From the NCBI GenBank assembly GCA_017934975.1, contig JAGBIM010000006.1, forward strand, positions 2,311 to 66,310: a stretch of DNA of 64,000 bases, given 5' to 3'. Positions 28,233 to 46,292 of the stretch are shown here, piece by piece. Below the pieces are notes generated by a model. It was not told the DNA's origin. It saw only the letters and a program-made list of their open reading frames with translations, and made no database searches. Each line of letters starts with the position of its first letter. Positions within the stretch are counted from its first letter, which is position 1. This DNA comes from Clostridia bacterium. GTDB taxonomy: Bacteria; Bacillota; Clostridia; Oscillospirales; UBA644. The translations under genes were made by a program, and so were the position numbers.

Positions 28233-28235
28233 AGT

Positions 28236-28377: not shown

Positions 28378-28397
28378 ATTTGTCAAAACATTTGTCA
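28378..28397 (+). repeat. putative integrase arm-type site (left)
   Basis: ATTTGTCAAAACATTTGTCA, identical at 47776-47795; inverted TGACAAAT at 28303 and 28325. Confidence 0.65.
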
Positions 28398-28742
28398 GAT
28401 TTTTTAATCCGAGATAATTTCATTCAATAATGTTATATACAAAATATTTGTGGAAATTGTAAATATGTTAAAAAACAAATACAACGGTGAGAAGTATACA
28501 CAAAACTATTTTCGTCCGAAGTCATTTGGCGAAAGTCCAGATTGGACCAGTTCGCCGAACGGAAGGTTCTGTAAAAATTAGACATAATTTTTTTCCTTTC
28601 TTTTTTGAATTATTTTATTGTTTTCGTTATAAGTATGAGCAACGAAAAAATTAAAAAGTTGTTTTTGAATAAAAATTTTCGACATTTTTTCTATCCGAAA
28701 ATAAAAACAGACGCCATCGTAACACCTCCTTTCAGGCATAAG

Positions 28743-28982
28743 AAAAAGCCGCTATACATACGCACTAATCCCTTGGTTGGGATTAATAAAAATATGTATA
28801 GCGGCTCTTTTGAGCCTAAATGGGCGCTACGCGGCGTCCTATGTGCGCTTAAGAAAACTCTCAAGCAGCTTGTCTTGGGAACCAATCCGTCGACATATGT
28901 TTATGTATGTGAGTGGCGGATGCAATGGCATACGCGGAACACTTTACAATATACTTTTACCATAAAATCTAACATTTGTCAA
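28743..28982 (-). promoter_or_regulatory. promoter plus structured leader/terminator
   Basis: TTGACA (28982-28977)-17 nt-TAAAAG; 14-bp stem 28747-28760/28793-28806 with U-run; AAAGGAGGT RBS beyond it. Confidence 0.45.
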
Positions 28983-29223
28983 CAGGATGTCTGGTTATTT
29001 TACAATTCCAGCAAGTTTTGCACTTTTTCCTCTTCGTTCTTGCGGGTGTTCCGGCGTGCTCCTCCGCATCTGTCATGGCGGCATGGAAGGGGAACGGGCA
29101 GCGGAGCAGGCCTGCGGGCCTGGAGACATAGATAAAAATAAATATAAATATAAATATATAGAATAGCAATGTTTCCCATAAGACAAGGAAAGACTCTCTG
29201 CATATAAACAGAGAGTCTATATC

Positions 29224-29415
29224 TTATCCTTTTACCTTTAAGTACTGTTCATATAATTCCTTATCCGAAGGAAGGACGGATTGCTCAAAAACTTTGCATG
29301 CCACACTATGAGCTACTTTCCATTGCACACACCTCGCATCCGCAAGAATGCATCTGCCCCCTACATAATTGCAACAGTGTCGCACGTTCTTTCTTATTCG
29401 ATTTGGGTCAATCAT
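29224..29415 (-). CDS. cysteine-rich VLP domain protein
   Basis: CCNY...C...CVQ...ACKVFEQSVLP pattern typical of Firmicute mobile elements. Confidence 0.75.
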   Translation of the reverse strand: MIDPNRIRKNVRHCCNYVGGRCILADARCVQWKVAHSVACKVFEQSVLPSDKELYEQYLKVKG

Positions 29416-29520
29416 TGATTACCACCGCCCTTCCACAATAAGTATGTAAGATGGGGGATGGTGATAATTTTCATAAAAAGACCGAAAGCCTTAAACTCTC
29501 GGTCTTCTTCGAATACTATG

Positions 29521-29844
29521 TTATACCCCGGGGTGTGTGGAAACGATTCCCGACGTTTTCGGAAAAGACGGATCTTTTTGCGTCATTGCCAACAGCCGAC
29601 AGGCCGCCCCTTCCGGATGATTTCGTCCGGACTCCCACGCTTCTACCGTTTTTACCGAAACTCCCATATATTTTGCAAAAAGCATCTGCGTTAATCCGGT
29701 GTTTTTACGAATCGTTCGAATTTCTTCGGGCTTAAATTTTTCTACGGGCTCCACGGTCAGAGTTGTGGTTTTTGCCTTTAATTTCCCTTTTTCGTAATCA
29801 ATTGCCTGTCCGAGTCCGGTTTTAATATCGTCAAAAATGCTCAT
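29521..29844 (-). CDS. XRE/HigA-like HTH antitoxin
   Basis: IRKNTGLTQMLFAKYMGVSVKTVEAWESG. Confidence 0.88.
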   Translation of the reverse strand: MSIFDDIKTGLGQAIDYEKGKLKAKTTTLTVEPVEKFKPEEIRTIRKNTGLTQMLFAKYMGVSVKTVEAWESGRNHPEGAACRLLAMTQKDPSFPKTSGIVSTHPGV

Positions 29845-29857
29845 AAAAACAACTCCT

Positions 29858-30205
29858 TCACCCTTCGTTTTCTTGCAGTTGACGCTCCAAGGCTTGAATC
29901 ATTTGTTTAATCTCAGCCCGCTCCGCATCTGTTAAATTATCCTTTTCATTTTTAGGATATGCAGTTATCAAAAATATTTTCTCGTAAACCTCAAAATCCA
30001 CATAAATGACACGTATGCTGCCGCTTTTCCCTCTTTGTTCAAAAGCAAACCGCATTTTTCGCACGCCGCCGGTGCCGCGCATTACCGCACCAACCGTTGG
30101 ATCTGCCAACAATTCTTCCTGTAAGCGTCGAAGGTCTGCATCGTTTAATCCGATTTTCTTCCACCTTGTGCGAAAGTGCGGAAGCTCTACAAACGTTCTG
30201 GTCAT
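29858..30205 (-). CDS. RelE/HigB-like type II toxin
   Basis: GTGGVRKMR, GKSGSIRVIY, AYPKNEKDNL; toxin precedes antitoxin. Confidence 0.88.
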   Translation of the reverse strand: MTRTFVELPHFRTRWKKIGLNDADLRRLQEELLADPTVGAVMRGTGGVRKMRFAFEQRGKSGSIRVIYVDFEVYEKIFLITAYPKNEKDNLTDAERAEIKQMIQALERQLQENEG

Positions 30206-30236: not shown

Positions 30237-30266
30237 ATTATACCCTATTTAATAGGGTTTTGTCAA
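30237..30266 (-). promoter_or_regulatory. TA promoter with palindromic operator
   Basis: TTGACA-18 nt-TATAAT with ACCCTATT-T-AATAGGGT (30242-30258) across the spacer. Confidence 0.7.
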
Positions 30267-30437
30267 GGGCTTTTTTGTAAAATTCATAAATTTCATCGTT
30301 TTGTTTCTTTTAATCTTATTGTATGAATCAAAACATTTATCCGACATCGTTTTCTTCCATACTGTTTTTAGAGTGTAAACACAATCTTGGAGATTCACGT
30401 TTGCACAACCAAAAAAACAAAAGATAGGAGATTAAAA

Positions 30438-31034
30438 ATGAGTAAATTACATGCAATCATCAAAACAAGCAGCGGGCGAACCGCGGAGGTGGACTTCCCC
30501 ATCGCCCGCCCCGAATTCAAAAAACTGATTCGGGAGTTGACTATGGACGACCCCGATGGACGGTGGTCCTTTGACGGATTTCTGGTCTGTTCCGCCGCCG
30601 AAGGTCGAGCTCTCGAACGATGCAAGAATTTGTCCGAAATCAATTATTACGGGCATATTGTTTCCCGGTTTTCCGACGAGGATTGGCGACGGTATCAATT
30701 CTTGCTTGACGCCGGCGTGGCGGAATGGGAGACCGTGAGAAACCTGATCAACATTGCCGCAAATGTCAACCATTACTGTTGTTTCAAGATCGCATCGTAC
30801 GCAGAACTGGGAAGATTTCTGCGAGAAGGAAATCCAAATTATCCTACATTTGCGGATCCGAGCGAAAAAACGTTGCGTAATGCGGGAAAGCAGTACGCAA
30901 AGCAAAAGCACGGAAAATTTTACGACGGGTATTATGTGGAACAAAATGATCTTTGGAACTCCATCTATAACGGGGACCCAAAAACGATCCCCGAACAATA
31001 TCAACTTCGGATCGAAGAAAGTGAGGAAAGATGA
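30438..31034 (+). CDS. ArdA-like (antirestriction-related) protein
   Basis: NLSEINYY...LINIAANV...ELG...GKFYDGYYVE pattern; AGGAG RBS. Confidence 0.55.
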   Translation: MSKLHAIIKTSSGRTAEVDFPIARPEFKKLIRELTMDDPDGRWSFDGFLVCSAAEGRALERCKNLSEINYYGHIVSRFSDEDWRRYQFLLDAGVAEWETVRNLINIAANVNHYCCFKIASYAELGRFLREGNPNYPTFADPSEKTLRNAGKQYAKQKHGKFYDGYYVEQNDLWNSIYNGDPKTIPEQYQLRIEESEER

Positions 31035-31642
31035 TGACCGAATACAAAATGACCGGAATCTTAAAATCGGAACACACGGGAAAGGGTGCGAAAATTCAAT
31101 TCCCCACGACGGAAAAAGCATTTAAGGAACTGTTGTACGATCTGTCCGACGGGCATCCAGATACCCCGTGGGGAATATCCGGAATCTGTGTTCAAAACGA
31201 AGAAGAGGCCTTTGCGATTGCTGCGTGCAAGAATTTGTCGGCGATAAATTATTATGCCGCTCTAGCACAAAATTTCACGCGGGACGAATATGCCTTGTAT
31301 CAATTTTTGTTGCGAGCAGGGGTTTGCGTAAAGTACACGATGGATACCATCATAAATCTCGCGTTGAACGTCCATAATTTTACGGTGTGCGCGGAGATCC
31401 CGGATGCATACGCTTTGGGCAAGATGATTTTGGACACAAGCACCGAGGAGGAAGGGAAAGCACCCGAAGGATTTGAAAATGCTTCCAAGGATAAAATTGC
31501 GATGCTGGGCGAAATGATCTGCATCAAATCCGGCGGAACGTTTTACAACGGCTTTTATATCGAACCCAACGACAACTACCAACTGTTATACGACAGCCCC
31601 GCCGATGTCCCAGAATTCTTTCGCATTTCCATCCCCGTATGA
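31031..31642 (+). CDS. ArdA-like protein, tandem paralog
   Basis: NLSAINYY...IINLALNV...ALG...GTFYNGFYIE; ATGA overlap. Confidence 0.55.
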   Translation: MMTEYKMTGILKSEHTGKGAKIQFPTTEKAFKELLYDLSDGHPDTPWGISGICVQNEEEAFAIAACKNLSAINYYAALAQNFTRDEYALYQFLLRAGVCVKYTMDTIINLALNVHNFTVCAEIPDAYALGKMILDTSTEEEGKAPEGFENASKDKIAMLGEMICIKSGGTFYNGFYIEPNDNYQLLYDSPADVPEFFRISIPV

Positions 31643-31676
31643 GACAACAACGAAAAATAAATACCGTGCAAACGCA

Positions 31677-31716
31677 ATCAGCCCCCGAAGAAATCATCGG
31701 GGGCTGGTTGTTTTTT
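31677..31716 (+). terminator. rho-independent terminator
   Basis: CAGCCCCCGA...TCGGGGGCTG followed by a T-run. Confidence 0.7.
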
Positions 31717-31749
31717 AGGAAAACGTTAATGGTCGCGTTACTGCAGTTA

Positions 31750-32298
31750 AGGGGATTCTTTTCGCTGTGGAAAAATAGGTTGTGCCCAACGGAGCTATTG
31801 GCGTCAAGCACAGGGGCGGGGCTGATGAAGCGGCACCAGTAGGGGTTGTAATAGCGGGCGTTGAGGTAGTACATCCCGCTTTCGACATCGTAGTAATAAC
31901 CACGATAACGGAAGGGATTGTAATGACCGAGGGTGGTTGCCAGGGTTCCCGTAACGCCCAGATTGCAGCCCCAGGCATCGTAGGAATAGCGGACGACCAG
32001 CGTGCCCGAGGAATTGAAAATCCCCAGAACATCGCCGAAGATGTTTTTGTAATAGTAATAATCCTGTCCGTTCCAGTTCAGACCGACGGGGGAACCGTTC
32101 TCGTCGTAGTAATAATAGAGCTGATGGGTTACGGTGCCGTATTCGTCCTTGCGGGTTTCTGCGACGATGGTGCTGCCGTCCAGCACGTAGTGAACGGTTT
32201 CGGTAATTTGTCCGTATTCTTCCCGAACCTTATCCGTGCGGATGCCGTCGGAGTTGTAGGAATAGTTGTGGAGAACGTCGCTGCTGAAGTAAGAAGTT
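31750..32298 (-). pseudogene. orphan Rhs core fragment with no start and no intact toxin tip
   Basis: NPFRYRGYYYD...YYLNARYYNP core homologous to 37110-37625; preceded by an in-frame TAA; DPxG motif decayed. Confidence 0.8.
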
Positions 32299-32323
32299 TA
32301 CCTGCAGTTGCGAAATTAGGTTT

Positions 32324-32923
32324 TTAAATATTTGCAGGGAAAATAATAACTTTTCCCATCTGTTCCAAGGTCTTGATCGTATGCTTTAAGCGGATTTGAA
32401 AGTAATCCACAAGTTTTTGACTGAACCATGGAAAACAGAACCATTCCATTCCGTACGCAACTCCGATTGCCGCCATGGCTTGGTATCGCTCGTTTCCGAC
32501 CTGGGACAAGGGCCGTTCAAACCGTTGGTCATCCAGGCCAAACAATTCCTTCAGCCCTTCCGAAGTGAAATCGGACTTGCTTTTTTTGATTCCTTGTTCG
32601 ATCAGTTTTCGGACACTCTTTCGTTTGGAAAACAATGGGAAGGACGGATCCATATAACAAGACTTTTCCATAATTTCTTCCATGATTTCTTCCGATTCTC
32701 CAAGGATTTTCGGTTGTTCAAAAAGAAGAAAATCCTTTTTTCGACAATGGTACATGGACAACAAATAAGAAATTGCCCACGCCCCGGAATCAATATCACC
32801 ATTCAGAATATTGCGTCCTTTTCGAAACTCGTACGCCTCGGATTGAAAACCGTCATGAGCTTCAAAAAAGGCGGAGTGGCATTTCACAAGTCCATCGCAA
32901 GATATTATATACTCTTTCTTCAT
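32324..32923 (-). CDS. putative immunity protein with degenerate ABC-ATPase-like fold
   Basis: ATGA overlap with the upstream toxin cassette; GDIDSGAW and RPLSQVGNERYQA resemble Walker A and the ABC signature. Confidence 0.6.
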   Translation of the reverse strand: MKKEYIISCDGLVKCHSAFFEAHDGFQSEAYEFRKGRNILNGDIDSGAWAISYLLSMYHCRKKDFLLFEQPKILGESEEIMEEIMEKSCYMDPSFPLFSKRKSVRKLIEQGIKKSKSDFTSEGLKELFGLDDQRFERPLSQVGNERYQAMAAIGVAYGMEWFCFPWFSQKLVDYFQIRLKHTIKTLEQMGKVIIFPANI

Positions 32924-33954
32924 CCTGTAAACCTCACAAATTTTATGTCCCAAATGGGAATTGGCCCTGGCATAACAGACACTACGGGCTTATCAAGTTG
33001 CACTATAAAATTCTTGATTCCGTTATCCCTAGCGAAAGGAGCAATTGTTTTAAAAGAAATCACAACACCAAGGTGCGCTCCAGAACGTGCTATTGAATAA
33101 TCACTAGGGGAATGCTTCCAAGCAAACACATAATCACCTTCCCAGGGACTCCCTCGCAACTTTCCTTCTGTTTGTATTTTTTTTAGTGCATCCAGCGAGG
33201 TAACGTGATAATACGTTTCTCCAAATTCATATTTCTTTTTCTTAGGTATAGCAATATCTTTTGCTAATTCTTTCGTTATTTTTTTGGAATCTGATTTTGG
33301 AATGGAAGCTGACGGCGCTGTCACCGGAGGATTTTGTGTAATTGAGTCTGCTATACTATAACCTGCAATAGCACAGCCGACAAGATAGATGATTTCTCCA
33401 AAAGGCAAGACTCCATCAGCACCGCAAAGCCACCACATAGACGCTGCCCACCCTGCTGCGGCAGGGCTGCACCCTGTAGGATCGATGCGGTTAATAGGAT
33501 CATTTCCGCAATATGTAAAGAGGTTGCAGCCTACGGCACTGCCCGTGTCGATGACGGGGTCGGGGCTGATGAAGCGGCACCAGTAGGGGTTGTAATACCG
33601 TGCGTTGAGGTAGTACATTCCGGTTTCGTTATCGTAGTAATAACCGCGATAACGGAAGGGGTTGTAGCGGCCGAGGGTGGTTGCCATGGTTCCCGTAACG
33701 CCCAGATTGCAGCCCCAGGCATCGTAGGAATAGCGGACGACCAGCGTGCCCGAGGAATTGAAAATACCGAGGATATCACCAAAAATGTTCTTGTAATAGT
33801 AATAATCCTGCCCGTTCCAGTTCAGGCCGATGGGGGCACCGTTCTCATCGTAGTAATAATAGAACTGATGGGTTACGGTGCCGTATTCGTCCTTGCGGGT
33901 TTCTGCGACGATGGTGCTGCCGTCCAGGACGTAGTGCACCGTATCCGTAATCAT
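32920..33954 (-). CDS. orphan Rhs core plus C-terminal toxin (ADP-ribosyltransferase-like)
   Basis: Rhs core ending PINRIDPTG; tip with YYHVTS...I...G.L...YVF. Confidence 0.75.
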   Translation of the reverse strand: MITDTVHYVLDGSTIVAETRKDEYGTVTHQFYYYYDENGAPIGLNWNGQDYYYYKNIFGDILGIFNSSGTLVVRYSYDAWGCNLGVTGTMATTLGRYNPFRYRGYYYDNETGMYYLNARYYNPYWCRFISPDPVIDTGSAVGCNLFTYCGNDPINRIDPTGCSPAAAGWAASMWWLCGADGVLPFGEIIYLVGCAIAGYSIADSITQNPPVTAPSASIPKSDSKKITKELAKDIAIPKKKKYEFGETYYHVTSLDALKKIQTEGKLRGSPWEGDYVFAWKHSPSDYSIARSGAHLGVVISFKTIAPFARDNGIKNFIVQLDKPVVSVMPGPIPIWDIKFVRFTG

Positions 33955-34006
33955 GCCCGCATTCTCAATAACCTTATCGGTGCGGCAAGGAGAGTGCCGG
34001 GAACTT

Positions 34007-34429
34007 CTACTTTATGTATTCTGCGATGAGTTGTTCAAACTCTTCTTTATCAAAAAAGAAATATCCGGAATTGTTTTTATTGGAACGTGTAAATGATTGA
34101 GAATCGTGATAGATGAAATCATAGTCTCCGTTGTAATATTCAATTCGGACAACGACGTATCCCTCATCAATGGAAAGCGGGGGGCCCCAACTTTTACTCT
34201 GTTTTATTTCGTTGAGTTTTTTGAGAAATCCGTTACGGTCTGCTATTTCGTGCAGCACCGTATATTCGAACTCATACTCTGCTTCGATATACCGATCAAG
34301 ACGGACGATTTGGACCGACTTTACGTTGTCGGGATTGCAGATATATCTTGAAGGCCCAAAGAAACCACAACTACATAATGAGAAAAGAAGAACAAAAACC
34401 ACTACAAAAACAGCAATTTTCTTAGTCAT
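34007..34429 (-). CDS. putative immunity lipoprotein
   Basis: Lipobox LCSC; GAGGAG RBS directly after the toxin stop. Confidence 0.7.
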   Translation of the reverse strand: MTKKIAVFVVVFVLLFSLCSCGFFGPSRYICNPDNVKSVQIVRLDRYIEAEYEFEYTVLHEIADRNGFLKKLNEIKQSKSWGPPLSIDEGYVVVRIEYYNGDYDFIYHDSQSFTRSNKNNSGYFFFDKEEFEQLIAEYIK

Positions 34430-34440
34430 ATAAATTCTCC

Positions 34441-35493
34441 TCACTTGAAAAACAACGGAATTAAACTCCAGTATGAGGTGTATTGTCCGGGAGGGAGAGA
34501 CGGTTTTCTGCGTTGTGTCAACGTTGAGTTCCCCAGCCGGTTTGCTTCTGCTTCCCACGGATAAGAATAATAGTCGTAAGGCAATTTCCCATTTTGGTCT
34601 AAAATACTAATAGTAACAGAAGGAATTGCAACCTCAAAAGTAAAGTTAATAATTCCTTTTTCTCTAAACTGTAAAACATGTCCGTATTCATGGTTTAGCG
34701 TGTTTGCGTTTTGCTGTGATTTGCTTAAACCAATAATTCCGAATGAAAAGGATGTATCAAGAGGTGTTTTTATTACAAGAGCGCCTTTATATCCGGAAAT
34801 ATAATTTGATTCAAAAACAGTATCTTCACTTTGATTATCGATATCAAAATTTTTGACATCTTCAACTATGTCTTCGCAAAATTCGACAACAGGATCAATA
34901 ATATTTTCTTTAACCCAACCAACGGCTTTTTTTATCCATTTCGGCCAATTTCCGGTATAGTCTGCATAGTTGACGGGATCATTGAAGCAATAGCAAAACA
35001 AATTATAGCCAACAGCAAGCCCGTCGGCCCCCAAGTATTGAGGCTCGTCAGCACTGATAAAGCGGCACCAGGAGGGGCGGTAGTAGCGGGCGTTGAGGTA
35101 GTACATTCCGCTTTCGGTGTCGTAGTAATAGCCACGGTAACGGAAGGGATTGTAGCGGCCGAGGGTGGTTGCCATGGTTCCCGTAACGCCCAGATTGCAG
35201 CCCCAGGCATCGTAGGAATAGCGGACGACCAGCGTGCCCGAGGAATTGAAAATCCCCAGAATATCGCCGAAGATGTTCTTGTAATAGTAATAATCCTGCC
35301 CATTCCAGTTCAGGCCGATGGGGGCACCGTTCTCATCGTAGTAATAATAGAGCTGATGGGTTACGGTGCCGTATTCGTCCTTGCGGGTTTCTGCGACGAT
35401 GGTGCTGCCGTCCAGCACGTAGTGACGGTTTCCATCGTTACCCCATAGTACGGATTCCGATAAGAAATTCCCGCGCTGGTGCTTTGTTTTCAT
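34441..35493 (-). CDS. orphan Rhs core plus HExxH metallopeptidase-like tip
   Basis: Rhs core ending PVNYADYTG; HEYGH and PWEAEA; start codon uncertain. Confidence 0.78.
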   Translation of the reverse strand: MKTKHQRGNFLSESVLWGNDGNRHYVLDGSTIVAETRKDEYGTVTHQLYYYYDENGAPIGLNWNGQDYYYYKNIFGDILGIFNSSGTLVVRYSYDAWGCNLGVTGTMATTLGRYNPFRYRGYYYDTESGMYYLNARYYRPSWCRFISADEPQYLGADGLAVGYNLFCYCFNDPVNYADYTGNWPKWIKKAVGWVKENIIDPVVEFCEDIVEDVKNFDIDNQSEDTVFESNYISGYKGALVIKTPLDTSFSFGIIGLSKSQQNANTLNHEYGHVLQFREKGIINFTFEVAIPSVTISILDQNGKLPYDYYSYPWEAEANRLGNSTLTQRRKPSLPPGQYTSYWSLIPLFFK

Positions 35494-35501
35494 CTGCTGC
35501 T

Positions 35502-36503
35502 TTACTCTTTCGTTACGATAAAGGTTTTCAAATCAACTGAATAGAGTTCTTGCAGTGGCGTTATTCCGAACAAATGAGAATCCGTTACGAAGAGACTGTC
35601 AAATGTTTTTTCGGAAATCCGTTTCTTTTCTCCGCTTTCAAGATCAATGCACCATAAGCCGTTTGTTTCCAGATCTGAAACATTCCAAACAACGGACCCG
35701 GATGAGTTTCTTTTTTGAAAAGATAAATACAAATATTTATCATTAACCGCAATCCTAATGTGATTTTGGTCTGGAATGGGTTCCCCAAACAACGAAATAT
35801 CTTTTTCTTGGAAACTATTCAGATTAAGAATATTGATGGAATCTGAAATGTCATCAAAATGAACAACTGTATCCTCATAAAAATAGAGATCATCGTAATA
35901 TGGGTTAACTGTATACGAAGTGTTAAAACTGTCTACAACACCGGTATTTAAAGAATATACGACTAATTCTCTGTTGGTCTCTCCTACATAGTATATAAGG
36001 TCTCCGTTTACCCAAAAACAATAAACATCTTCTGCGATTTCTTTTTTCTGACCTGTTGAGAAGTTCTGAAATAAAAATCTTCCCTCTACACCAGAAATAT
36101 ATACAAGATTATTATTATGAACATAAAAATCATAAACGGGATCCATTACAACATCCGAAGCCCCGGTATCTATAGACATGCGGTAAAGGCTATTTCCGTC
36201 GAGGTAATACAAATATCCGTTGTCAAGCATAAACTTGTTTACGCCGTACACGGTTCTTCGGGCACCATCTTTTTCCCACACAGTAATACAAGGAATGAAT
36301 AGCCTTGTGTTCCAAATCGCGACACAGTCATCGCTCTTGTCCAAGAAATTTTCATTTCTGATATAATTATTTGAATTGGTTTTCGAATAATTGGAAGAAA
36401 TCAACACATTCGGAATTTTTCGAGGAACAAAGAACCATAGAAGCACAACAACGAAGAGGAGAAAAAGGATTACACCCAAAGAGATCAAAAAAAACTTTTT
36501 CAT
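35502..36503 (-). CDS. membrane-anchored beta-propeller-like protein (DUF5050-like), putative immunity
   Basis: N-terminal transmembrane helix; GYLYY/NLVYI/DLIYY repeats; ATGA overlap with the Rhs stop. Confidence 0.65.
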   Translation of the reverse strand: MKKFFLISLGVILFLLFVVVLLWFFVPRKIPNVLISSNYSKTNSNNYIRNENFLDKSDDCVAIWNTRLFIPCITVWEKDGARRTVYGVNKFMLDNGYLYYLDGNSLYRMSIDTGASDVVMDPVYDFYVHNNNLVYISGVEGRFLFQNFSTGQKKEIAEDVYCFWVNGDLIYYVGETNRELVVYSLNTGVVDSFNTSYTVNPYYDDLYFYEDTVVHFDDISDSINILNLNSFQEKDISLFGEPIPDQNHIRIAVNDKYLYLSFQKRNSSGSVVWNVSDLETNGLWCIDLESGEKKRISEKTFDSLFVTDSHLFGITPLQELYSVDLKTFIVTKE

Positions 36504-39500
36504 GAAAACAGGCCTCCTATCAATTTTGTTGCAATCCGCTTACCTGCAGCGCGACTTACGTAAAAAAGAAATTCTGCTGTTCTTAATTTTATGACCTCGG
36601 AATTTACATGATTAAAATAAAGATTGGGTATAAGTGCATTGTCCTCTTTTAGTATCTTTTTATAAAAAAAGTCATATTTCTTAAAATTTCCTCGTAACAA
36701 AGCTCTTTTGGTAACTTGTACACAGTTACGATATAATAAGTCGTAAGAAAAATTTTTGCGTTGAAGATCGTATATATAAGAAATACTTCCAGAAAAATCT
36801 CCTTCAAAATATATCATTTTCTCATATCCTTTTTCAGGATCGTTTGCCGAATAATGCTTGTTTATACCCTCAAAAGATAAGTCGCCACCATACGGCTCTA
36901 AAAATTCATAGGAGCCAGTTTTTCCCGAAAAACCGCCTCGATTGCTTCCCCAATAGAAATGAAGCCATTGTCCATTTTCGTCTTGAAGTAACAGGCCTGA
37001 ATGCCCTAATCCGCCAACGGCATCTTTATCTTGCAACCAAATTGCATCTTCTCCGGTGAGATCAAAATAACACACGGGAGAATTATTGCAGTAAACAAAC
37101 AAATTGCATCCTACGGCGTTGCTGGCGTCAAGCACAGGATCCGGGCTGATGAAGCGGCACCAATAGGGGTTATAATAGCGGGCGTTGAGGTAGTACATTC
37201 CAGTTTCGTTATCGTAGTAATAACCGCGATAACGGAAGGGGTTGTAGATTCCCAGTGTGTTTGCCATGGAGCCGGATCGGGAAATGCTATTCCCCCAGGC
37301 GTCATAGGAATAACGAACCACCAAAGTCCCTGCGGAATTGAAAATGCCGAGGATATCACCAAAAATGTTCTTGTAATAGTAATAATCCTGCCCGTTCCAG
37401 TTCAACCCGATGGGTGCACCGTTTTCATCGTAATAGTAGTAGAATTGGTGCGTTACCGTATCATAGCCGTCTTTGCGCGTCTCGGAAACGATGGTACTGC
37501 CATCCAGTACGTAGTGAACGGTTTCGGTAATCTGTCCGTATTCTTCCCGAACCTTGTCGGTTCGAATTCCGTCGGAATTGTAGGAATAGTAGTGGAGAAC
37601 GTCACTGCTGAAGTAAGAAGTCAGTTCTCGGCCGTTCCAGGTGTAGGAGGTGTCGAAGTCCCAGGTAACGTTCCCCATGGCATCGTAGTAGAAGGAGCTG
37701 CTGCGCTCCCCGATGCCATAGAAATTGATACCGATATAATTCCATTCTTTTGCGGTGTACTCAATTTCTTCACCCAGATCGCCCACGGTGAAAGAATAGG
37801 ATCTGCGGGAGAGAATATTGCCGACCGTATCGTAGGTGTAGGTATAGGAAATCCCCGCATCGGCGTTGTCTTCCCGAATGAGGAACCCGGTGACGCTATC
37901 GTAGGTATACTTGTTGATCAGTTGGCCGTTGCGCAGAACCCGAATGACCCGACCGACGGAATCGTATTCGTAGGACAAGGTTTCGTTCAGTGCGGAGTTC
38001 GTTTCCGCGTTCACCACGTCCGAAGAATAGCCGGTAGTGCCGTTCCAACCCGGACGGAAGGAGTATGTCGTTTTGAAAAGCTCCGTTCCTCCGGCGTTGC
38101 GCAGGCTGACGTTGTTCAAACGGTGGAGATAATCGTAATTCAACGCGCGGGTCAGGCGATTGGTAATGCTCCAGTTTTCCAGACGGTCCGCTTCACCGTA
38201 GGTGGGGACGTAGGAAAGGGAGGTGGACCCCAAGGTATAATTAAGACCGGAGGTGCGATTTTCCGCATCGTAAGTGACGGCGGTGGTCATTTCGGGGACG
38301 TTTGCCGCCGTATAGTGAGTGTAACCCGTGACGCGGGAAAGGGTATCGTAGGAGTAGTCGGTATAATACCCCTTCAGATTGTTCTGATTCCGTAGAAGAT
38401 TTCCGTTGTCGTCGTAGGAGAAGACGAAGGAGGGCGTGACGGCTCCGTTGCGGTAGATTGCGGAAAGGAGATTTTGGGCATTGTAGCCGTATTGCTCCGA
38501 ATAACCGTTGGCATAGGTCATGGAAGCAAGCTTCCCGTAGCCCTGCTGATAGGTATAGGTGACGAGATTCGTGTTGCCCGATCTCAGAGAAATCAGGTTT
38601 CCGAAGGCATTCCGAGAGAAGGTAAAGCTGTTTTTGGTGGTGGAAACCTTTTCCAAGAGAAGGGCATCGTACTCGTTGTAGGTGTAGGTTACAGGAGCAT
38701 TCGAGGAAAGGACGCCGTCGCTTGTTTCGATGCCGCCGATGTAGGTTCTTGCCAAGGTTTCGTTGGGATTGTATTCGTAATTGGTAAGGATTCCGTTTGC
38801 GTTGCAGGAGGAAATCAGCTGATTTGCGTAGTAGTAGCTTGCAGAGGTGTTCCCCGTGGTATCGTAGGTTTTGAAAACGAATCCCTCGGAAGTGTAGGTC
38901 TGTTCCGTGCGGAAGGCCGACGAATCGGTAACGCCTTCGGCGGTACTCGTGATTTCCGAAGAACGGACCTGGCCGTAGCCGTTATAGGTATACTCCGTGT
39001 GCAGGTCCAGAGGCAGATCTGCAGAGGTGATATTGCGATTGAAGAACCCCGAACTATAAGAATAAGATGCACTTTCAGAGGTTCCGTCCGCCTTGTTTCG
39101 GGATGCGGAGACGAGGCGGTTCTCGTTATCGTAGGAATAAGAACGGTCGCTTCCTACGGAAGAGCGTGTGGCGGTCACATTGCCTTTGTTATCGTAATCG
39201 ACGTTTTGATAAACTCCCGCCGTGAGGGTTACTCCGTCAAAGTATGCCGTATTGACGTTGTTCTCGTAAACGCATTCCACGGTGATGGACTCGATGGAGG
39301 TGATTTCGATATCCGGTTTTGACTCCACTATGAAAGAGCCTGCTACGTATTGCCATTCGTCGCAGAGCCATTGGAAGGGGATGTCTACGGTACGGGTGAA
39401 GGTTTCGGGAGCCGTCCCGGAAAGGGAAGCGTTATACGTGATCTTGGCTCGGAGTGCAAAGGCGGCACCCGTATCGGCGGTGTTCATGGAGTCCGCCTTC

Positions 39501-42208
39501 GCCCACCCGGAAATCAGAAACACTTTGGGCTTTCCTTGGTAGGTGGCACCCGTGTAGGTCTGGCTTGCCTTTCCGTTTGCCGTGATCTTCAGGGAATTCG
39601 TTCCGTATTTCGCCTGCTCGGACGTTCTTTGGGCTGCCGTGAGCGTCCAGGATCCGTCCGTTTCAAAGGAAGAATCGGACAGAAGGTTTTGTTCTACGGA
39701 ACCACTCGTCTGATTGGCGGAATAGAAGGTGTTTGCGCCGCCGTAAACGGAAGAATACAGCTTGTGGCGCTTGTAATTAACCGCACTTCCCGTGGGGGCG
39801 GTGTATTCGTAAGACGAGGCGTTGAATACTTTTCCGTTGTTGTCTCGGGAGTAGGATGCGGTGGTGCGTCCGTACTGATCGTAGATATAGGACGTAAACA
39901 GGTCGTCGGCGTTGTTGTAAATATCATCTGCGCCGCCCGTGCGAACGGTGGTAAAGCCGGGCTGATATTCAAATCCGACGGTCGCACCTGCGGTATTGGA
40001 GAGATTAACCCGGCCGTAATTCTGCACCGAGGAGACGCGATCGTTCGCATAGGTCAGATTATAACGGGATGCGTCGTTGTAGATGGCAGAAAGGCGGCCG
40101 TCGGCATACTGGAATCGGGTAGTGCCGATTACCCCGGTAGAAGATCCGATCACGGAAAGATTTACGATGGCGAACAACTCTCCGGCGGAATTGTAATTGA
40201 GATTGGTTTGATAGCGCGTTCCGCTCACGGAATGATAAATCCGATACGGCGTCCCGTTGCTGTTGTAGGAAAACGCAACGGATTCAACGGAATCTTCGTA
40301 GATGCCGTATTCATCCACACCGGTAGTCAATGCGGTAATTTCGTAAATGCGTACTTTGTCCCCGCTTTGATTATAGGAATACTGTAGGCTTTGACCGGCG
40401 GGGGAACGTTCGGATTGCAGGTAATAATAATGGGAGTTTTCATCTGCGCCCGAGCGATTGAAAATTTTGACGTAATCCTCTTTGCTTGTAATTGTGGCAG
40501 AGAGATTGTAAGAATCAACGGTCAGGGTCAATCCGAGACCGTCTTCGTCATAATAGCCACCGGAACCGTCTCCCGTGAAATAGTGGGCCGTTCCATCGCC
40601 GTCCAAATAAATATATGAACCGCTTTTGTAAACGAGGTATTCGTAATTCGAGAAGGACCAGCCGTTTCCGGGCAATCCGTAGAAATACTGTTCAGGATCG
40701 TATTCTTCGGCGATATCGGTATTATAAACGGCAGAAACGGTTACGATGGAAAGGGGTTTTGTTGGGGTAAGGCAACTTACGACCGCCGTCGCCTGTCCCG
40801 TTGCATGCTTTACGAACAAAGACGCGGAGGAAAGATCGAATTCCGAATAAGTGAAATATTCTTCCAAGCCCACGGAATCGTAATAAAAAATTTGTACCTT
40901 TGGACGGTAGCTGTAATCCGCGCTTAGATCGTACACGCTCATTTCGCAAGAGCCTGCCGTGTATTGCGTCTGGCTCAAGCGAACCGACCTTACACCGGAC
41001 TCATGCCAATCCTTTGCAAGGGCCGTGACGTCGAGCTTCATGAAAGTTGAAATCGAAGACACGTCGGCCTTGCTTGCCAGGGCGGAATTCACTTCTCCGT
41101 TTACGATTTCACGGGCTCCTACCGTGACGTTAGCCTGTGGTGCCGTTTTTATGGGGAAGATCAATTCTGCTTTGCTGATCAGCGCGCGGGAAGGCACGCC
41201 AATCTCACTCAGGGGCTTAACCGTTACGTCAATGGTATCGGTTTCTCCGCTGAGGTAATAGCTGTTAACACCGGCACGCGTTCCGACAAAGGAGGCAATT
41301 CCGGCAGATCCTTGTTTTAAAATATTGGGGTCAATGACTACGGGAAATTTCGCGGACTGCACCCATTCGGAAGAAAGGGTTACGGTCAGCGTATAATTGT
41401 CGCTGTTGCCTTTTTGAGCAAGCGTATAGAAGACGTCTGTCGTTTCGGTCCCATCCGCATCGTATGCAAACGGTGCGGGCATGAACCACAAAATATCCTC
41501 CCCGTCTTTGAGCGCAATTCCTCCGTCTTCCTGCAGTTCTGCAGAGAGATTCTGCAACTTGAGATCAAAGGCAAAGGTGTAAGATTCCAGAGGTTCTTTG
41601 ATAATAATATTTTCTTTGATGCGGGTTCCGATCAGCTGATATTCAAGATCAACGTGATCCAAAACCTCAGGATAATACACGCCGGAGACAAGCTTGATCA
41701 AATGGGTCTTGTCGTTGTTGTTCCCCGGATTTACAACCGTTCCGACCGAGCTTTTTGCGGAAGAAGAAAGCCCGAAACGAACGTTGTAATCATCTTTATG
41801 TAATTCTACCAGTTTATGGGTGTTCCCGTTTTCCGCAAAACGAATCGTAACGTCGTTTTGGGAAACGTATTCGCCTTCCGACGGATTGAGCGTATTGTCG
41901 ATATCCGTCCAGGTTCCGTCCTTTTCATAGTGGACGGGCATTGCATAATCCGCAGCCAAAATCATACCATCAGGCATACGGAAATGCTTGGTTGTTTCGG
42001 TTCGCTTTGCAACGATTTCCTCCGGCTCACGCGGGAGATCGGAGAATTCGATGTTCTCATCTGCAGGGGCGACAACCTGCTGGTCCGTTTCCTGCGTCAA
42101 CGCTTCTGTCGCAAAAGACCGCAGTACGGTTTGCGGTAAAATTTGAAGACAGAACGCAAGCACAAGAAACACGGCGAAAAACTTCAGGGTTATAGAAATG
42201 TGTTTCAT
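36500..42208 (-). CDS. WapA-like secreted Rhs/YD-repeat polymorphic toxin
   Basis: Signal peptide; KRTETTKHF, IKENIII, FPVVIDP; CBM-like NLLSDSSFE; YD repeats; core ending PVCYFDLTG; variable tip. Confidence 0.9.
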   Translation of the reverse strand: MKHISITLKFFAVFLVLAFCLQILPQTVLRSFATEALTQETDQQVVAPADENIEFSDLPREPEEIVAKRTETTKHFRMPDGMILAADYAMPVHYEKDGTWTDIDNTLNPSEGEYVSQNDVTIRFAENGNTHKLVELHKDDYNVRFGLSSSAKSSVGTVVNPGNNNDKTHLIKLVSGVYYPEVLDHVDLEYQLIGTRIKENIIIKEPLESYTFAFDLKLQNLSAELQEDGGIALKDGEDILWFMPAPFAYDADGTETTDVFYTLAQKGNSDNYTLTVTLSSEWVQSAKFPVVIDPNILKQGSAGIASFVGTRAGVNSYYLSGETDTIDVTVKPLSEIGVPSRALISKAELIFPIKTAPQANVTVGAREIVNGEVNSALASKADVSSISTFMKLDVTALAKDWHESGVRSVRLSQTQYTAGSCEMSVYDLSADYSYRPKVQIFYYDSVGLEEYFTYSEFDLSSASLFVKHATGQATAVVSCLTPTKPLSIVTVSAVYNTDIAEEYDPEQYFYGLPGNGWSFSNYEYLVYKSGSYIYLDGDGTAHYFTGDGSGGYYDEDGLGLTLTVDSYNLSATITSKEDYVKIFNRSGADENSHYYYLQSERSPAGQSLQYSYNQSGDKVRIYEITALTTGVDEYGIYEDSVESVAFSYNSNGTPYRIYHSVSGTRYQTNLNYNSAGELFAIVNLSVIGSSTGVIGTTRFQYADGRLSAIYNDASRYNLTYANDRVSSVQNYGRVNLSNTAGATVGFEYQPGFTTVRTGGADDIYNNADDLFTSYIYDQYGRTTASYSRDNNGKVFNASSYEYTAPTGSAVNYKRHKLYSSVYGGANTFYSANQTSGSVEQNLLSDSSFETDGSWTLTAAQRTSEQAKYGTNSLKITANGKASQTYTGATYQGKPKVFLISGWAKADSMNTADTGAAFALRAKITYNASLSGTAPETFTRTVDIPFQWLCDEWQYVAGSFIVESKPDIEITSIESITVECVYENNVNTAYFDGVTLTAGVYQNVDYDNKGNVTATRSSVGSDRSYSYDNENRLVSASRNKADGTSESASYSYSSGFFNRNITSADLPLDLHTEYTYNGYGQVRSSEITSTAEGVTDSSAFRTEQTYTSEGFVFKTYDTTGNTSASYYYANQLISSCNANGILTNYEYNPNETLARTYIGGIETSDGVLSSNAPVTYTYNEYDALLLEKVSTTKNSFTFSRNAFGNLISLRSGNTNLVTYTYQQGYGKLASMTYANGYSEQYGYNAQNLLSAIYRNGAVTPSFVFSYDDNGNLLRNQNNLKGYYTDYSYDTLSRVTGYTHYTAANVPEMTTAVTYDAENRTSGLNYTLGSTSLSYVPTYGEADRLENWSITNRLTRALNYDYLHRLNNVSLRNAGGTELFKTTYSFRPGWNGTTGYSSDVVNAETNSALNETLSYEYDSVGRVIRVLRNGQLINKYTYDSVTGFLIREDNADAGISYTYTYDTVGNILSRRSYSFTVGDLGEEIEYTAKEWNYIGINFYGIGERSSSFYYDAMGNVTWDFDTSYTWNGRELTSYFSSDVLHYYSYNSDGIRTDKVREEYGQITETVHYVLDGSTIVSETRKDGYDTVTHQFYYYYDENGAPIGLNWNGQDYYYYKNIFGDILGIFNSAGTLVVRYSYDAWGNSISRSGSMANTLGIYNPFRYRGYYYDNETGMYYLNARYYNPYWCRFISPDPVLDASNAVGCNLFVYCNNSPVCYFDLTGEDAIWLQDKDAVGGLGHSGLLLQDENGQWLHFYWGSNRGGFSGKTGSYEFLEPYGGDLSFEGINKHYSANDPEKGYEKMIYFEGDFSGSISYIYDLQRKNFSYDLLYRNCVQVTKRALLRGNFKKYDFFYKKILKEDNALIPNLYFNHVNSEVIKLRTAEFLFYVSRAAGKRIATKLIGGLFS

Positions 42209-42368
42209 CTGGGATTCTCCTTTTCTGATTTTTTTGTATGTCAACGGCAAAGCCGCAATACCCAAAAACAAAAAAATGGTTGTATCCTGTCTTGACGATA
42301 TTTAATTGTATATGCAAAATTCGACTTGCTTCAGAATTTTCAGAACCAAAAAAGCTTTTGTTGATTAA

Positions 42369-42397
42369 AGTATAGCACAAATTTTGTCTCGTGTCAA
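42369..42397 (-). promoter_or_regulatory. sigmaA promoter upstream of the Rhs gene
   Basis: TTGACA-17 nt-TATACT with extended TG. Confidence 0.65.
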
Positions 42398-42979: not shown

Positions 42980-44272
42980 TTACGCCCCAGCAGGAACTGG
43001 AATTACGCGAATGTCTTCATATGTATACTCATAGGTTGTAACAGTTCCCCGAGAATCTGTTCTGTCTTCTTTTATTTTATTTCCGTATTTATCGTAGGTG
43101 ATTTCAAAAGGACCACCCTCGAATCCATGCCCGATTTCTTTTAACAAATGGCCGTTTTCGTCATAAGCATATTCTTCGATAACAGAAACCTCACCGCGCT
43201 TATTTGACGTTTTTTTTATGAGATTTCCGTTGTTATCATAGATATACGCGAGCTCCCAGCTATCAGTACTATTATGATTAGTCTCCTTTAAGATGTTACC
43301 GCAATCATCATAGACATACAATGTTACGCTACGGAATCCGTAAGAATTTGTTGTGATTTTTTTTACGAGATTACCATTGTCGTCATAGGTGTTTTCCGTG
43401 GTCGTTGTTGTAGTGGTGGAGCCTTCTCCGTAACAATTTGTTTTAACTTGCTTCAATAAATTTCCATTATTATCGTAGGTGTTCTCAGTTGTATCGACGC
43501 GTCCTTCGGAATTTGTATAATTTTCCTTTAGCAAGTTTCCGTTGCTATCATACGTGTACTCTCGAATCCCCTCATATCCGGTTCCGTCGTCTTTCATGTC
43601 AAGTTTCTTTAGCAGGTTCCCTTTCTCGTCATAAGTATATTTTGTAACGCTCGAAACTCCGGTATAACCTAAGAAATGGTCTTCTAACAATTTCCCGTAT
43701 TCGTCATAGGTATATTCTATGAGTGAAGAAAACTTATCGGATTCGATCCTATGTTCCTTTAATAGGTTTCCGTTGTTGTCGTAGGTAAACTCATTGGCAA
43801 TAACATATCCGTCGGCGCGAGTGAGGGTTTCGCTTAATAGGTTACCATGATTGTCATAAGTATTTTCGGTAGTATCAAAACCTCCTTCGTAATTTGATTC
43901 CAGTTCTTTTAACACATTCCCGTTTTGATTGTACTCACGGACATAAATCAATTCTCCGTTTTTATAGGTCTGCTTTTTTGTGTATAAAATTTTATAGCCT
44001 TCTCCACAGGAGCATTTGTATAAAAGATAACCTGCTCCGCAGGGGCCTTCATGTATCGATCCAAGCCTCTCACAACTATGAAAAACGTATTCCCTCGTCG
44101 AACACTGCGGGGGGACAATCGTTTTGACATATTTGTGAACGTGGTCGCTAATTTGTGAATCAGAATTGATGATAACATTGGAATTGCTTGACGTCTCCTC
44201 CCCACAGGCTGCAAGGCAGAATAACATACAAACAAGAATTGAAAGAGAAAAAAACTTTTTCACAAAAAACAC
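42980..44272 (-). CDS. lipoprotein with Cys/His motif and about 12 YD-like repeats
   Basis: Lipobox LAAC; repeated TYDxxGNLLKE. Confidence 0.8.
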   Translation of the reverse strand: MFFVKKFFSLSILVCMLFCLAACGEETSSNSNVIINSDSQISDHVHKYVKTIVPPQCSTREYVFHSCERLGSIHEGPCGAGYLLYKCSCGEGYKILYTKKQTYKNGELIYVREYNQNGNVLKELESNYEGGFDTTENTYDNHGNLLSETLTRADGYVIANEFTYDNNGNLLKEHRIESDKFSSLIEYTYDEYGKLLEDHFLGYTGVSSVTKYTYDEKGNLLKKLDMKDDGTGYEGIREYTYDSNGNLLKENYTNSEGRVDTTENTYDNNGNLLKQVKTNCYGEGSTTTTTTTENTYDDNGNLVKKITTNSYGFRSVTLYVYDDCGNILKETNHNSTDSWELAYIYDNNGNLIKKTSNKRGEVSVIEEYAYDENGHLLKEIGHGFEGGPFEITYDKYGNKIKEDRTDSRGTVTTYEYTYEDIRVIPVPAGA

Positions 44273-44278
44273 CCTTCC

Positions 44279-45010
44279 TTAGTCAAACATCTTAAAGATT
44301 TTGCTGACATCAAAGCCCGTCATGCTTTCGAACAAAGCGTTGTACAAAGCTTCTCCAATCAAAACGACCAAAACGATCAGGACCGTCGTCATGAGGGCAA
44401 AGCCCCAGACGGGGTCGCGGTTTTCTACCTCAATGGCCTGCAATTTCTGCCACAGAGAGGCGACGAGATAAACAAGTCCGAACAGAATAACCAGGATGAT
44501 GCCGTCCGCCCAGAACAGCCCCAACAGCATGCTGAACAGATATGCGCACGTGAGGGGGACGAGGGACGCTGCGAGCGCGTTCGACGTCTGGCAAAAGTTG
44601 GCGAAGGTTTGATGGTGAATGCAATGCAGCAGCCAATAACCCACGGCGAAAAGTACGAAGGAAATCAATCCGACCAGAAGGGACATTCCGAAGATTTCAC
44701 CAAAAGGCGGACGGACATATTTTGAAGCGAAGAGTTCTTGCATTAACACCGCAACGAAAAAGCCGTAGACAAGGATGGAAAATATCCCAAAACCCAGCCA
44801 CCCAAACCCGGTTCCCATTTGGGATGCTCCCGTTCTCGCCGGAAGTTTCCATTTTGTTTGAGGGGCGCTTTGAGAGGCGGCAACCGTTGTGACGGGCGGA
44901 ATAAAGACCCCCGTGCCGCCTTCGCTGGTTGCGGATTCCACAGGTTTCCCGCAATGGAGGCAAAATTTCGATTCAGTGCTGATTTCTTTCCCACATTTCA
45001 TACAGAACAT
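44279..45010 (-). CDS. zinc-ribbon membrane protein
   Basis: MFCMKCG...FCLHCG followed by about five transmembrane helices. Confidence 0.82.
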   Translation of the reverse strand: MFCMKCGKEISTESKFCLHCGKPVESATSEGGTGVFIPPVTTVAASQSAPQTKWKLPARTGASQMGTGFGWLGFGIFSILVYGFFVAVLMQELFASKYVRPPFGEIFGMSLLVGLISFVLFAVGYWLLHCIHHQTFANFCQTSNALAASLVPLTCAYLFSMLLGLFWADGIILVILFGLVYLVASLWQKLQAIEVENRDPVWGFALMTTVLIVLVVLIGEALYNALFESMTGFDVSKIFKMFD

Positions 45011-45035
45011 AACAGTTTCTCCTCTCGGTTTTTGA

Positions 45036-46292
45036 TTATTGATAATATTGTTTTATAATGTAATCCGGGAGCTCGGTAGACATATACCAATCTCCGTCAA
45101 TTTTACGCAGACAGACCGCCCACGGGCCTCCCTCGTCTATATCGAACAGGGAGGTGGAGATTTCGCAATTGGTTTTCACTACGGCGTAATCGTCCCCGTA
45201 ATAGACGCATTCTCCGATATCCAGATCAAATTCAAAGCCTGCCAGATCCTTCACGAAGCCCACGGCGTCGGCAAAGGGAATTCGCAATCCGATCTTGGAA
45301 AGAAGCCCGTCCCAATCCTCTTCGTTCTTGTCAAGCTGTACCACGATTTCGGGATCGATGCAGCTCATCAGGTCGTCGTAATCCCAATCGTCAATGGAAT
45401 CTTCGAATTTTTGTACCACTTGAACGGGGTCTGGGGTAATAATGCCGAGAAAATCGATGGGGTATAACAGTTCCGGTTCAACGGCCGCAATTGCTCCCGT
45501 TGCGACTACCCCTGCGCCGATGATCCCCGCAATTACTTTTCCTGCGACACCGAGCCCCCCTGCGGTTGCCCCGACTTTCCCTGCCGTAACGGCGGCGGTT
45601 GTTGCGGTCCCCGCTGCCGTGGCTGCCGAGGTTGCGCTGGAAACTCCTTGAACAACGGCGGAAACCGCTTCTGCCGTCGGTTGCGCCGCAGAGGAGCTTT
45701 GGATCCACCGCAACAATCCGAGAATGGCGATGGGGCCGAGGCTATGCAGGCGGATGTTGTTTTTCTTTTCGTAGTCCGATACGAGCTCTTCCATCTTTTT
45801 TCGCCCGTACCGTACCCGACTTTTCACCGTACTTTCCGGAATCCCGAGAGCGCCCGCCGCATCGGCCGAGGTCATTTCCGCACCGTCCACCATGAGCAGA
45901 CAGATTCTTTGCTCTTCGGGCAGTTGTTCCATCAAGGTTTGTACAATTCTGGCCGTTTCTTCCCGATCGGCCACCGCCTCGGGGGAAAAGATTGTGGCGG
46001 TGTCCTCAAACTCAAGGGGGGTGTCTTCTTCGGGCGCTTCCAAATCGGTAAACAGCGTGGGCTGTTTCTTTTTAAAAAGGTCTTTGCAGCGGTTTGAAAC
46101 GATCTGCTTCATCCACACGTCGAACTTGGAAGGATCCTGGATCCGTTCCAGATTCAAAAACGCGGAAATATAGGCTTCCTGCACCAAATCTTCCGCGTCC
46201 TGTGCGTTTCGCAACAGGCGGAAGGCAAGGGCGTAAGTTTTGGCGTAGGTTTCGGTAAACAGTTGCTCCGTTGCCTTTGCGTTTCCGTTCAT
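45036..46292 (-). CDS. ECF sigma factor fused to a transmembrane helix and an extracellular domain
   Basis: DAEDLVQEAY (region 2), LPEEQR...GIPESTVKSR (region 4), Ala/Gly-rich linker and transmembrane helix; start uncertain. Confidence 0.85.
   Translation of the reverse strand: MNGNAKATEQLFTETYAKTYALAFRLLRNAQDAEDLVQEAYISAFLNLERIQDPSKFDVWMKQIVSNRCKDLFKKKQPTLFTDLEAPEEDTPLEFEDTATIFSPEAVADREETARIVQTLMEQLPEEQRICLLMVDGAEMTSADAAGALGIPESTVKSRVRYGRKKMEELVSDYEKKNNIRLHSLGPIAILGLLRWIQSSSAAQPTAEAVSAVVQGVSSATSAATAAGTATTAAVTAGKVGATAGGLGVAGKVIAGIIGAGVVATGAIAAVEPELLYPIDFLGIITPDPVQVVQKFEDSIDDWDYDDLMSCIDPEIVVQLDKNEEDWDGLLSKIGLRIPFADAVGFVKDLAGFEFDLDIGECVYYGDDYAVVKTNCEISTSLFDIDEGGPWAVCLRKIDGDWYMSTELPDYIIKQYYQ

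Follow-up and report, generated by a model that had tools for sequence, protein, structure and literature searches.

An Rhs-type toxin locus with downstream core-tip-partner cassettes in an uncultured, very probably spore-forming Firmicute

Orphan rhs-CT/rhsI modules of enterobacteria are described in three reports (Jackson 2009, PMC2935791; Poole 2011, PMC3150448; Koskiniemi 2014, PMC3967940), the first of which sets out a C-terminal displacement model in which an incoming core-tip piece drives the old tip downstream. Polymorphic toxins are further reported by Zhang et al. 2012 (PMC3482391) to diversify by recombination with standalone cassettes, and an account of the Streptococcus suis wapA locus places a truncated 'Rhs orphan' carrying a second C-terminal (CT) toxin, CT2, downstream of WapA-CT1 (PMC12704120). 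Here we analyzed an Rhs locus within a 64-kb window, by which we mean the whole 64,000-nucleotide (nt) stretch of contig JAGBIM010000006.1 from a Clostridia bacterium (GenBank assembly GCA_017934975.1, a metagenome-assembled genome (MAG) that is 71% complete). It is highly probable that the locus encodes a Sec-exported polymorphic antibacterial toxin of the Rhs (YD-repeat) type and owes its shape to C-terminal displacement. Layouts of this kind are standard in Gram-negative rhs loci and already on record for a Gram-positive wapA locus, and the present one, a sound but ordinary case, leaves the understanding of Rhs systems unchanged. Its value lies in adding a clear case of C-terminal displacement at an rhs locus of an uncultured, very probably spore-forming gut Firmicute, in supplying three toxin-partner pairs (a predicted ADP-ribosyltransferase (ART)-fold toxin with a conserved partner and two putative envelope-acting enzymes of uncurated family), and in providing sequence evidence for tract exchange between core copies.

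The array consists of one full-length gene followed by three further copies of its 3' core, with all of its genes on the minus strand. Its features are as follows, with lengths in amino acids (aa).
36500..42208, minus strand: main rhs gene, 1902 aa from the ATG at 42208, with a predicted Sec-type signal, some 1000 aa in which no known domain was recognized, YD repeats, the RHS core, and the tip
37052..37625, minus strand: 3' core of the main gene and reference copy of the repeat, holding both autoprotease Asp residues and the demarcation motif
36503..37051, minus strand: main tip, 183 aa, guanine-plus-cytosine (GC) content 35.5%
35502..36503, minus strand: imm1, 333 aa, with an N-terminal membrane anchor and a possible beta-propeller
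34441..35493, minus strand: orphan 1, 350 aa, with its core copy at 34951-35432 and its tip at 34444-34950
34007..34429, minus strand: imm2, 140 aa, with a lipoprotein-type signal ending in Cys
32920..33954, minus strand: orphan 2, 344 aa, with its core at 33472-33954 and its tip at 32923-33471
32324..32923, minus strand: imm3, 199 aa, with neither a signal nor a transmembrane segment
31745..32298, minus strand: orphan 3, a decayed, tipless core remnant
31674..31711, no strand assigned: bidirectional terminator hairpin, shared with a convergent plus-strand gene, at the end of the array
42369..42397, minus strand: sigma-70-like promoter 5' of the main gene, with TTGACA, a 17-nt spacing, TATACT, and an extended TG, assigned on consensus matches only (11 of 12)

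A mechanical open reading frame (ORF) call starts the main gene at a TTG (36500-42271, 1923 aa), but the ATG at 42208 is the most likely start because an AAGGAG lies 8 nt upstream of it and the database gene call is likewise 1902 aa. The promoter-like site lies approximately 160 nt upstream of this ribosome-binding site and ATG.

Compared with enterobacterial rhs loci, the locus has the same full-length gene followed by 5'-truncated core fragments, the same association of a different tip, placed after a sharp demarcation motif, with a small downstream gene, and the same lower GC content of the tips relative to the core. It differs in export, which in enterobacteria proceeds through the type VI secretion system with PAAR and VgrG and here would use a Sec-type signal in a Firmicute host, and in that its orphans are 93% alike mutually and only 78-83% like the main core. 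Bacillus subtilis WapA is a known Gram-positive counterpart. In contrast to WapA, the main protein has no CWB2, LysM, or other wall-binding Pfam domain detectable at E <= 1 when scanned as four 400-aa pieces; the full gene had been called WapA-like in the preliminary description of this DNA, and that label fits its Sec-type signal and not its lack of a recognizable wall-binding domain in the Pfam scans. The order of signal peptide, Rhs repeats, variable C-terminal toxin, and (here putative) immunity gene is shared with S. suis WapA (PMC12704120), whereas the S. suis protein is given there as more than 3000 aa with one orphan, against 1902 aa and three orphan copies here, and adjacent SrtB or SecF-like genes were not noted in our locus. 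In Listeria, the report on LrhA/LrhI (PMC10327511) describes an Rhs toxin linked to a type VIIb secretion system (T7SSb), with a membrane-anchored immunity protein read as indicating an envelope target. This pairing of a Firmicute Rhs toxin with an N-terminally anchored immunity protein is a pattern that imm1 and imm2 share, but LrhA is described there as lacking a Sec signal and lying in a T7SSb locus, and no T7SSb context was seen here.

Core copies were sought by BLASTN with positions 37110-37625 as the query against the 64-kb window. This search returned copies at 31786-32297 (81.1% identity over 514 nt, E = 5e-138), 33530-33984 (81.2% over 458 nt, E = 4e-120), and 35054-35432 (79.1% over 382 nt, E = 5e-88), which lie within a few bases of the three further copies reported previously, and an independent repeat search of the window found the same four core copies. 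The earlier wording, 'highly similar' to the main copy, is to be read as an identity of 79-81%. Over a 373-nt block that all four have in common, identity among the three downstream copies is 93%, and their identity to the main copy is 77.5%, 82.6%, and 77.7%; the longest exact runs that they share with it are, in the same order, 29, 58, and 26 nt. Orphan 3 and the main gene share approximately 110 nt of additional upstream core at 89%. Orphan 3 has no start codon ahead of a GTG at 32186, a TAA at 32300 marks the opening of its frame, and it runs into the terminator hairpin at 31674-31711, in keeping with the prior statement that the last copy is tipless. A single full-length Rhs gene was detected in the 1.83-Mb assembly. 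Elsewhere in the assembly, contig C28 carries a fifth core copy, truncated and with no full-length Rhs gene adjoining; this remnant (1590-2114 of its locus, minus strand) ends inside the core and is preceded by small genes of lipoprotein and membrane type and by a surface protein with leucine-rich repeats.

The assignment to the Rhs family, made earlier from the letters, is borne out by domain models. The main protein matches the RHS repeat families PF05593 (E = 6.1e-14) and TIGR01643 (E = 3.7e-6), with more YD repeats emerging when the protein is scanned in pieces, and TIGR03696 at 69.8 bits (cut-off 32.5) over residues 1656-1740 of the 1923-aa ORF; the same model scores 62.7, 78.7, and 49.1 bits in the three orphans. 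Its N-terminus, with two Lys residues, a hydrophobic stretch within residues 1-31, and an A-x-A-like site, is predicted to be a Sec-type signal. No named domain was found in Pfam scans of the first ~1000 aa, and the sole named match in the N-terminal pieces was a weak one to DUF7948 (E = 0.0038). The main core stretch RFISPDP...YFDLTG aligns with RhsP, RhsA, and TccC3 over both conserved Asp residues and the pre-tip motif. The Asp pair (D187 and D213) is invariant in a six-sequence alignment of the main tip family, and both positions are present in orphans 1 and 2 and absent from orphan 3; this pair is taken to be catalytic in the Rhs autoprotease, as Protein Data Bank (PDB) titles also hint. 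An AlphaFold model of orphan 1 (mean predicted local distance difference test (pLDDT) score 77.4) agrees with the family assignment in that its core part resembles the C-terminal plugs of RhsA, RhsP, and Tc (Z 13.2, for RhsA, down to 9.3), and teneurins are matched as well.

Beyond a common ...NLF.YC.N.P.....TG motif, the three tips cannot be aligned with one another. Each is followed closely by its partner gene: the main stop codon and the imm1 ATG overlap as ATGA, as do the orphan 2 stop codon and the imm3 ATG, both partner genes having a GGAG-type ribosome-binding site, and the imm2 ATG at 34429 sits 11 nt after the orphan 1 stop codon with a GGAG 8 nt before it. The earlier claim that the full gene and two orphans each carry an unrelated tip and a tightly coupled partner is thus confirmed, and domains, repeats, and coupling agree on 5'-truncated core-tip-partner cassettes downstream of an Rhs polymorphic toxin gene. 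GC content is 35-43% in the tips and partner genes, 52-53% in the orphan cores, 47% in the main core, 51% in the gene body, and 54-59% in the flanks. Homologues of the tips occur elsewhere on both full-length and orphan-size Rhs proteins, and their frequency was counted in 400 other genomes of the same order.

For the orphan 2 tip (183 aa), a word-indexed search among longer proteins returned only the window's own protein, and an exhaustive search returned 167 representatives at E <= 0.001, the match always being C-terminal; RHS repeats were found in 18 of 40 homologues scanned (of 150 listed), including proteins of 2059 and 1440 aa. An AlphaFold 2 model built from a 40-row alignment has pLDDT values above 90 over residues 83-183. 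Comparison of this model with all PDB representatives by VIA-align ranked TreTu first (Z 9.4, root-mean-square deviation 2.4 over 87 aa) and Tne2 next (Z 7.3), and most of the 50 rows listed were ADP-ribosyltransferases or NAD-using ART-fold enzymes; the match in Foldseek was weak (E 0.04), and the Pfam ART families gave no match. The last ~100 aa of the orphan 2 tip are accordingly predicted, from the model, to adopt an ART fold. TreTu is described as a Salmonella Rhs toxin with an ART fold that ADP-ribosylates EF-Tu (PMC9825190; PDB 7zhl). Like the orphan 2 tip, whose putative immunity protein is cytoplasmic too, it is a C-terminal Rhs tip with a cytoplasmic immunity protein, and it is the closest structural match (87 of 113 residues), but sequence identity is 10% with no sequence-level match, and imm3 is unrelated to the TreTu immunity protein TriTu as far as tested. 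Within the orphan 2 tip family, His89 is invariant in the first strand (YYH.T motif), at which point TreTu has Arg according to the same report, and D149 is likewise invariant. Under the ART clade scheme given there (PMC9825190), the tip would carry an H-Y-[QED]-like triad and belong to the H-type rather than the R-S-E type.

In the 400 genomes, the orphan 2 tip occurs in two, at three loci, and an imm3 homologue lies directly 3' of the tip homologue at all three (45%, 39%, and 26% identity; E = 1.5e-51, 8e-32, and 1e-15). Prediction of a complex between the ART domain and imm3 gave a score of 0.00, which is no verdict and counts neither way. The first ~60 aa of this tip (32923-33100) form a hydrophobic, low-confidence linker between the demarcation motif and the ART domain; the linker recurs in many homologues, which match query residues 3-60, and it may be an entry or membrane-interaction segment.

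For the main tip, a database search returned seven foreign homologues, with lengths including 1818, 1434, and 326-450 aa, and 6 of the 400 genomes contain one. The six-sequence alignment of this family shows an invariant His in GH[ST]G and, approximately 90 residues later, an invariant Cys in NC (H233 and C326). An Atlas feature search gave TseH (0.96) and IcsB_M (0.95), which is a lead and not a family membership; TseH and the IcsB middle domain are papain-like enzymes. From these sequence features the main tip is likely a permuted papain-like hydrolase, and we regard it as a candidate for the papain-like/NlpC-P60-like group. Its partner imm1 has a single N-terminal membrane anchor and a borderline beta-propeller match (PQQ_2, E = 3.5e-6, 27.3 bits against a cut-off of 27.6 bits). 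The gene 3' of the main tip homologue is N-terminally anchored in three of four loci with ORFs listed, and at a fifth locus the downstream gene encodes a small multi-pass membrane protein.

The orphan 1 tip (169 aa) has 19 homologues at 44-64% identity, mostly on proteins of 297-678 aa, one of them a 1841-aa Rhs protein with ricin-type lectin domains. An HExxH motif (H268, E269, H272), the zinc-binding signature of zincin metallopeptidases, and a PWEAEA block (E314, E316), with candidates for the third zinc ligand, are invariant over 19 sequences. Weak hints of a protease came from three sources, namely structural similarity to two metalloprotease effectors, the VgrG2b effector domain and anthrax lethal factor (Z 3.0), a PHROG 'protease' family (E = 0.0019), and an Atlas lead to eCIS_core (0.84); with the complete orphan 1 model as query, it was the Rhs core and not the tip that drove the Foldseek and VIA-align matches. 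The tip occurs in 10 of the 400 genomes, on frames of 2110, 2178, and 2197 aa plus short frames, and in five of eight loci examined the next gene encodes a small lipoprotein-type protein. In one related genome, HExxH tips that closely resemble each other, with near-identical lipoprotein partners, occur both on a full-length Rhs gene (2178-aa frame) and on an orphan downstream of it (316-aa frame), so that this array holds a tip in duplicate.

Taken as a displacement-shaped toxin locus, the array would function as follows. The Rhs shell would enclose the tip, the aspartyl autoprotease of the core would release it, and the tip would be delivered to neighbouring bacteria, perhaps in the contact-dependent manner supposed in the preliminary description, with the partner genes encoding the immunity proteins. 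Orphans would be former or alternative tips that were displaced downstream on insertion of a new core-tip-immunity piece. They carry no export signal and no shell, so they would not be exportable in their present form, while their immunity genes would probably still protect against neighbours firing the corresponding toxins. Homologous recombination in the common core could return an orphan tip to the main gene. Because their partners are membrane-anchored or a lipoprotein, the main tip (the putative His/Cys hydrolase) and the orphan 1 tip (the putative HExxH peptidase) probably act on the cell envelope, and the orphan 2 tip, because of its predicted ART fold and cytoplasmic partner, probably acts inside the target cell. 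Co-transcription of the array with expressed immunities and silent orphans is plausible because ribosome-binding sites are good at the partner genes and weak at the orphan starts, no strong terminator was seen inside the array, and a promoter-like site lies 5' of the main gene.

The history of exchange is recorded in the core copies, all five of which are mosaics of main-type and orphan-type sites. Orphan 2 has five consecutive main-type sites (main ~37349-37364) among 58 orphan-type sites, and a run count this low arose in only 1 of 10,000 shuffles. In the C28 copy, 24 orphan-type sites give way to 16 main-type sites, and a run count as low as that arose in none of 10,000 shuffles. These shuffles treat sites as independent, and the figures therefore show clustering and are not formal probabilities. 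The clustered tracts point to past gene conversion between core copies. They also fit the C-terminal displacement model, and the main core, being the odd one out, suggests itself as the last to have arrived. The preliminary description called the array switchable. As regards past exchange, the mosaic tracts support this; as regards present rearrangement, contigs from four public runs, which cannot show rare variants, contained neither a rearranged allele nor a joint linking one core copy to another, and main-orphan identity is modest. A few listed joints had sides of only ~20 nt and were disregarded.

Several observations weigh against the displacement-shaped toxin locus or against parts of it. 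None of the three tips receives a name from a sequence match in Pfam (E <= 10), NCBIfam, or the PDB, and a PHROGs search gave nothing usable for naming them. No homologue of imm1 was detected by tblastn or BLASTP beside the main tip homologues at six loci, nor did these methods find sequence relatives of imm2 beside the distant orphan 1 tip homologues, so that the putative role of imm1 and imm2 as immunity proteins draws on position, coupling, and topology. The order of the cassettes rests on the assembly, because the MAG is 71% complete and short-read contigs break in each core. Ribosome-binding sites at the orphan starts are weak, and the main and orphan cores are no more than 78-83% identical, with only short exact matches between them, which would make present-day switching inefficient. 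The last two observations, together with the decay of orphan 3 and the C28 copy and the lack of a core-copy joint in the contigs of the four runs, also favor a different view of the orphans, in which they are fossils of past displacement and hold nothing in reserve, with only the immunity genes under selection, against neighbours. Orphans 1 and 2, however, keep open frames of 350 and 344 aa, both autoprotease Asp residues, and the residues invariant in their respective tip families, and the mosaic tracts speak for exchange between main and orphan cores; we take the fossil view to be a genuine possibility, though somewhat less probable than not.

Public sequencing data bear on how the array varies. 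At least part of 31500-38000 is present in 16 public runs from 10 studies, all gut or other metagenomes and some labelled sheep gut, and no RNA run is listed among them. Contigs of runs X5, X6, and X8, from three other studies, carry near-identical DNA over the body of the Rhs gene, the flank on the left, and the cassette of orphan 1 tip and imm2, with zero cover over the orphan 2 tip (bin 32808-33408) and the main tip (bin 36414-37014) and no cover or next to none over imm1 (bin 35813-36413). No contig of these runs bridges the uncovered bins, and for this reason the pattern does no more than hint at tip differences between strains. A farther-reaching proposal, that all three tips found uncurated toxin families, that two of them (the His/Cys hydrolase and the HExxH/PWEAEA peptidase, with extracytoplasmic partners) would let Sec-exported Rhs shells of gut Clostridia attack the envelope of a neighbour from outside without import, and that the array is still being reshuffled by gene conversion among strains living together in animal guts, seems to us unlikely in its entirety. 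As for how widespread the layout is, matches to the main protein were found in 21 of 41 related genomes searched, and several of these combine, on a single contig, one long frame with short ones that match the core; such arrays are therefore common in the group.

The orphan toxin-partner pairs might instead be expressed inside the producer as toxin-antitoxin-like modules, as one report describes for a Salmonella orphan rhs (PMC7043789). The ATG starts and open frames of orphans 1 and 2, the lack of a strong terminator between genes, and the cytoplasmic nature of both the orphan 2 tip and imm3 would suit this role, but the ribosome-binding sites are weak, and orphan 1 has no signal while its partner is a lipoprotein, which would put the two in different compartments; we consider this improbable. 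Least probable, and to us very improbable, is that the array is an assembly artefact in which strains with different tips on one gene were chained through the shared core, as the metagenomic source and the ending of Logan contigs of run X1 inside every core copy might suggest, for single X1 contigs run across every junction, unique in sequence, between a partner gene and the 5' end of the next orphan (X1 being possibly the sample of origin and so not independent support), the orphans begin with non-homologous or truncated 5' ends and not with Rhs gene body, and the long-plus-short layout recurs on single contigs of other genomes.

Turning to the host and the genomic setting of the toxin locus, the window encodes a YpeB germination protein (E = 2.7e-53, 181.5 bits, below the curated cut-off of 303.55 bits), and the only distant locus with the main protein in a contig scan comes from a Lachnospiraceae MAG; judged from sequence, the host is very probably a spore-forming Firmicute. 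The array lies in a 22-kb stretch of low GC content (28-50 kb) that begins at a tRNA-Trp gene, the only RNA found in an Rfam scan. The phrase 'clostridial island' used previously can be kept in this sense, that is, for a very probably spore-forming Firmicute host and a low-GC stretch beside a tRNA-Trp gene. Directly after the tRNA gene, 28233-29500 (~1.3 kb, 38% GC) contains no convincing ORF and has no Rfam match, and public contigs of several runs break at tRNA-Trp.

Other genes lie between the tRNA and the array. The minus strand at 29521-30205 encodes a pair made up of a RelE/HigB-like toxin (PF06296, E = 1e-10) and a helix-turn-helix/MqsA-like antitoxin, near which a perfect TTGACA-18-TATAAT promoter-like site occurs at 30237-30266. 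Two overlapping paralogous genes of ~32% identity follow on the plus strand (30387-31034 and 31031-31642); this pair has no Pfam, NCBIfam, or PHROG match, is convergent with the array, and ends at the shared terminator. Directly upstream of the main rhs gene, a 430-aa lipoprotein of YD/RHS-type repeats (42980-44272, minus strand; PF05593, E = 9e-21) lacks a core domain and a tip, and similar short YD proteins are encoded on contigs C20 and C34. Farther upstream, 44279-46532 on the minus strand encodes a zinc-ribbon protein with five membrane segments beside an extracytoplasmic function (ECF)-type sigma factor, which forms a fusion with a membrane segment and a long domain at the C-terminus; possibly these two proteins regulate the locus.

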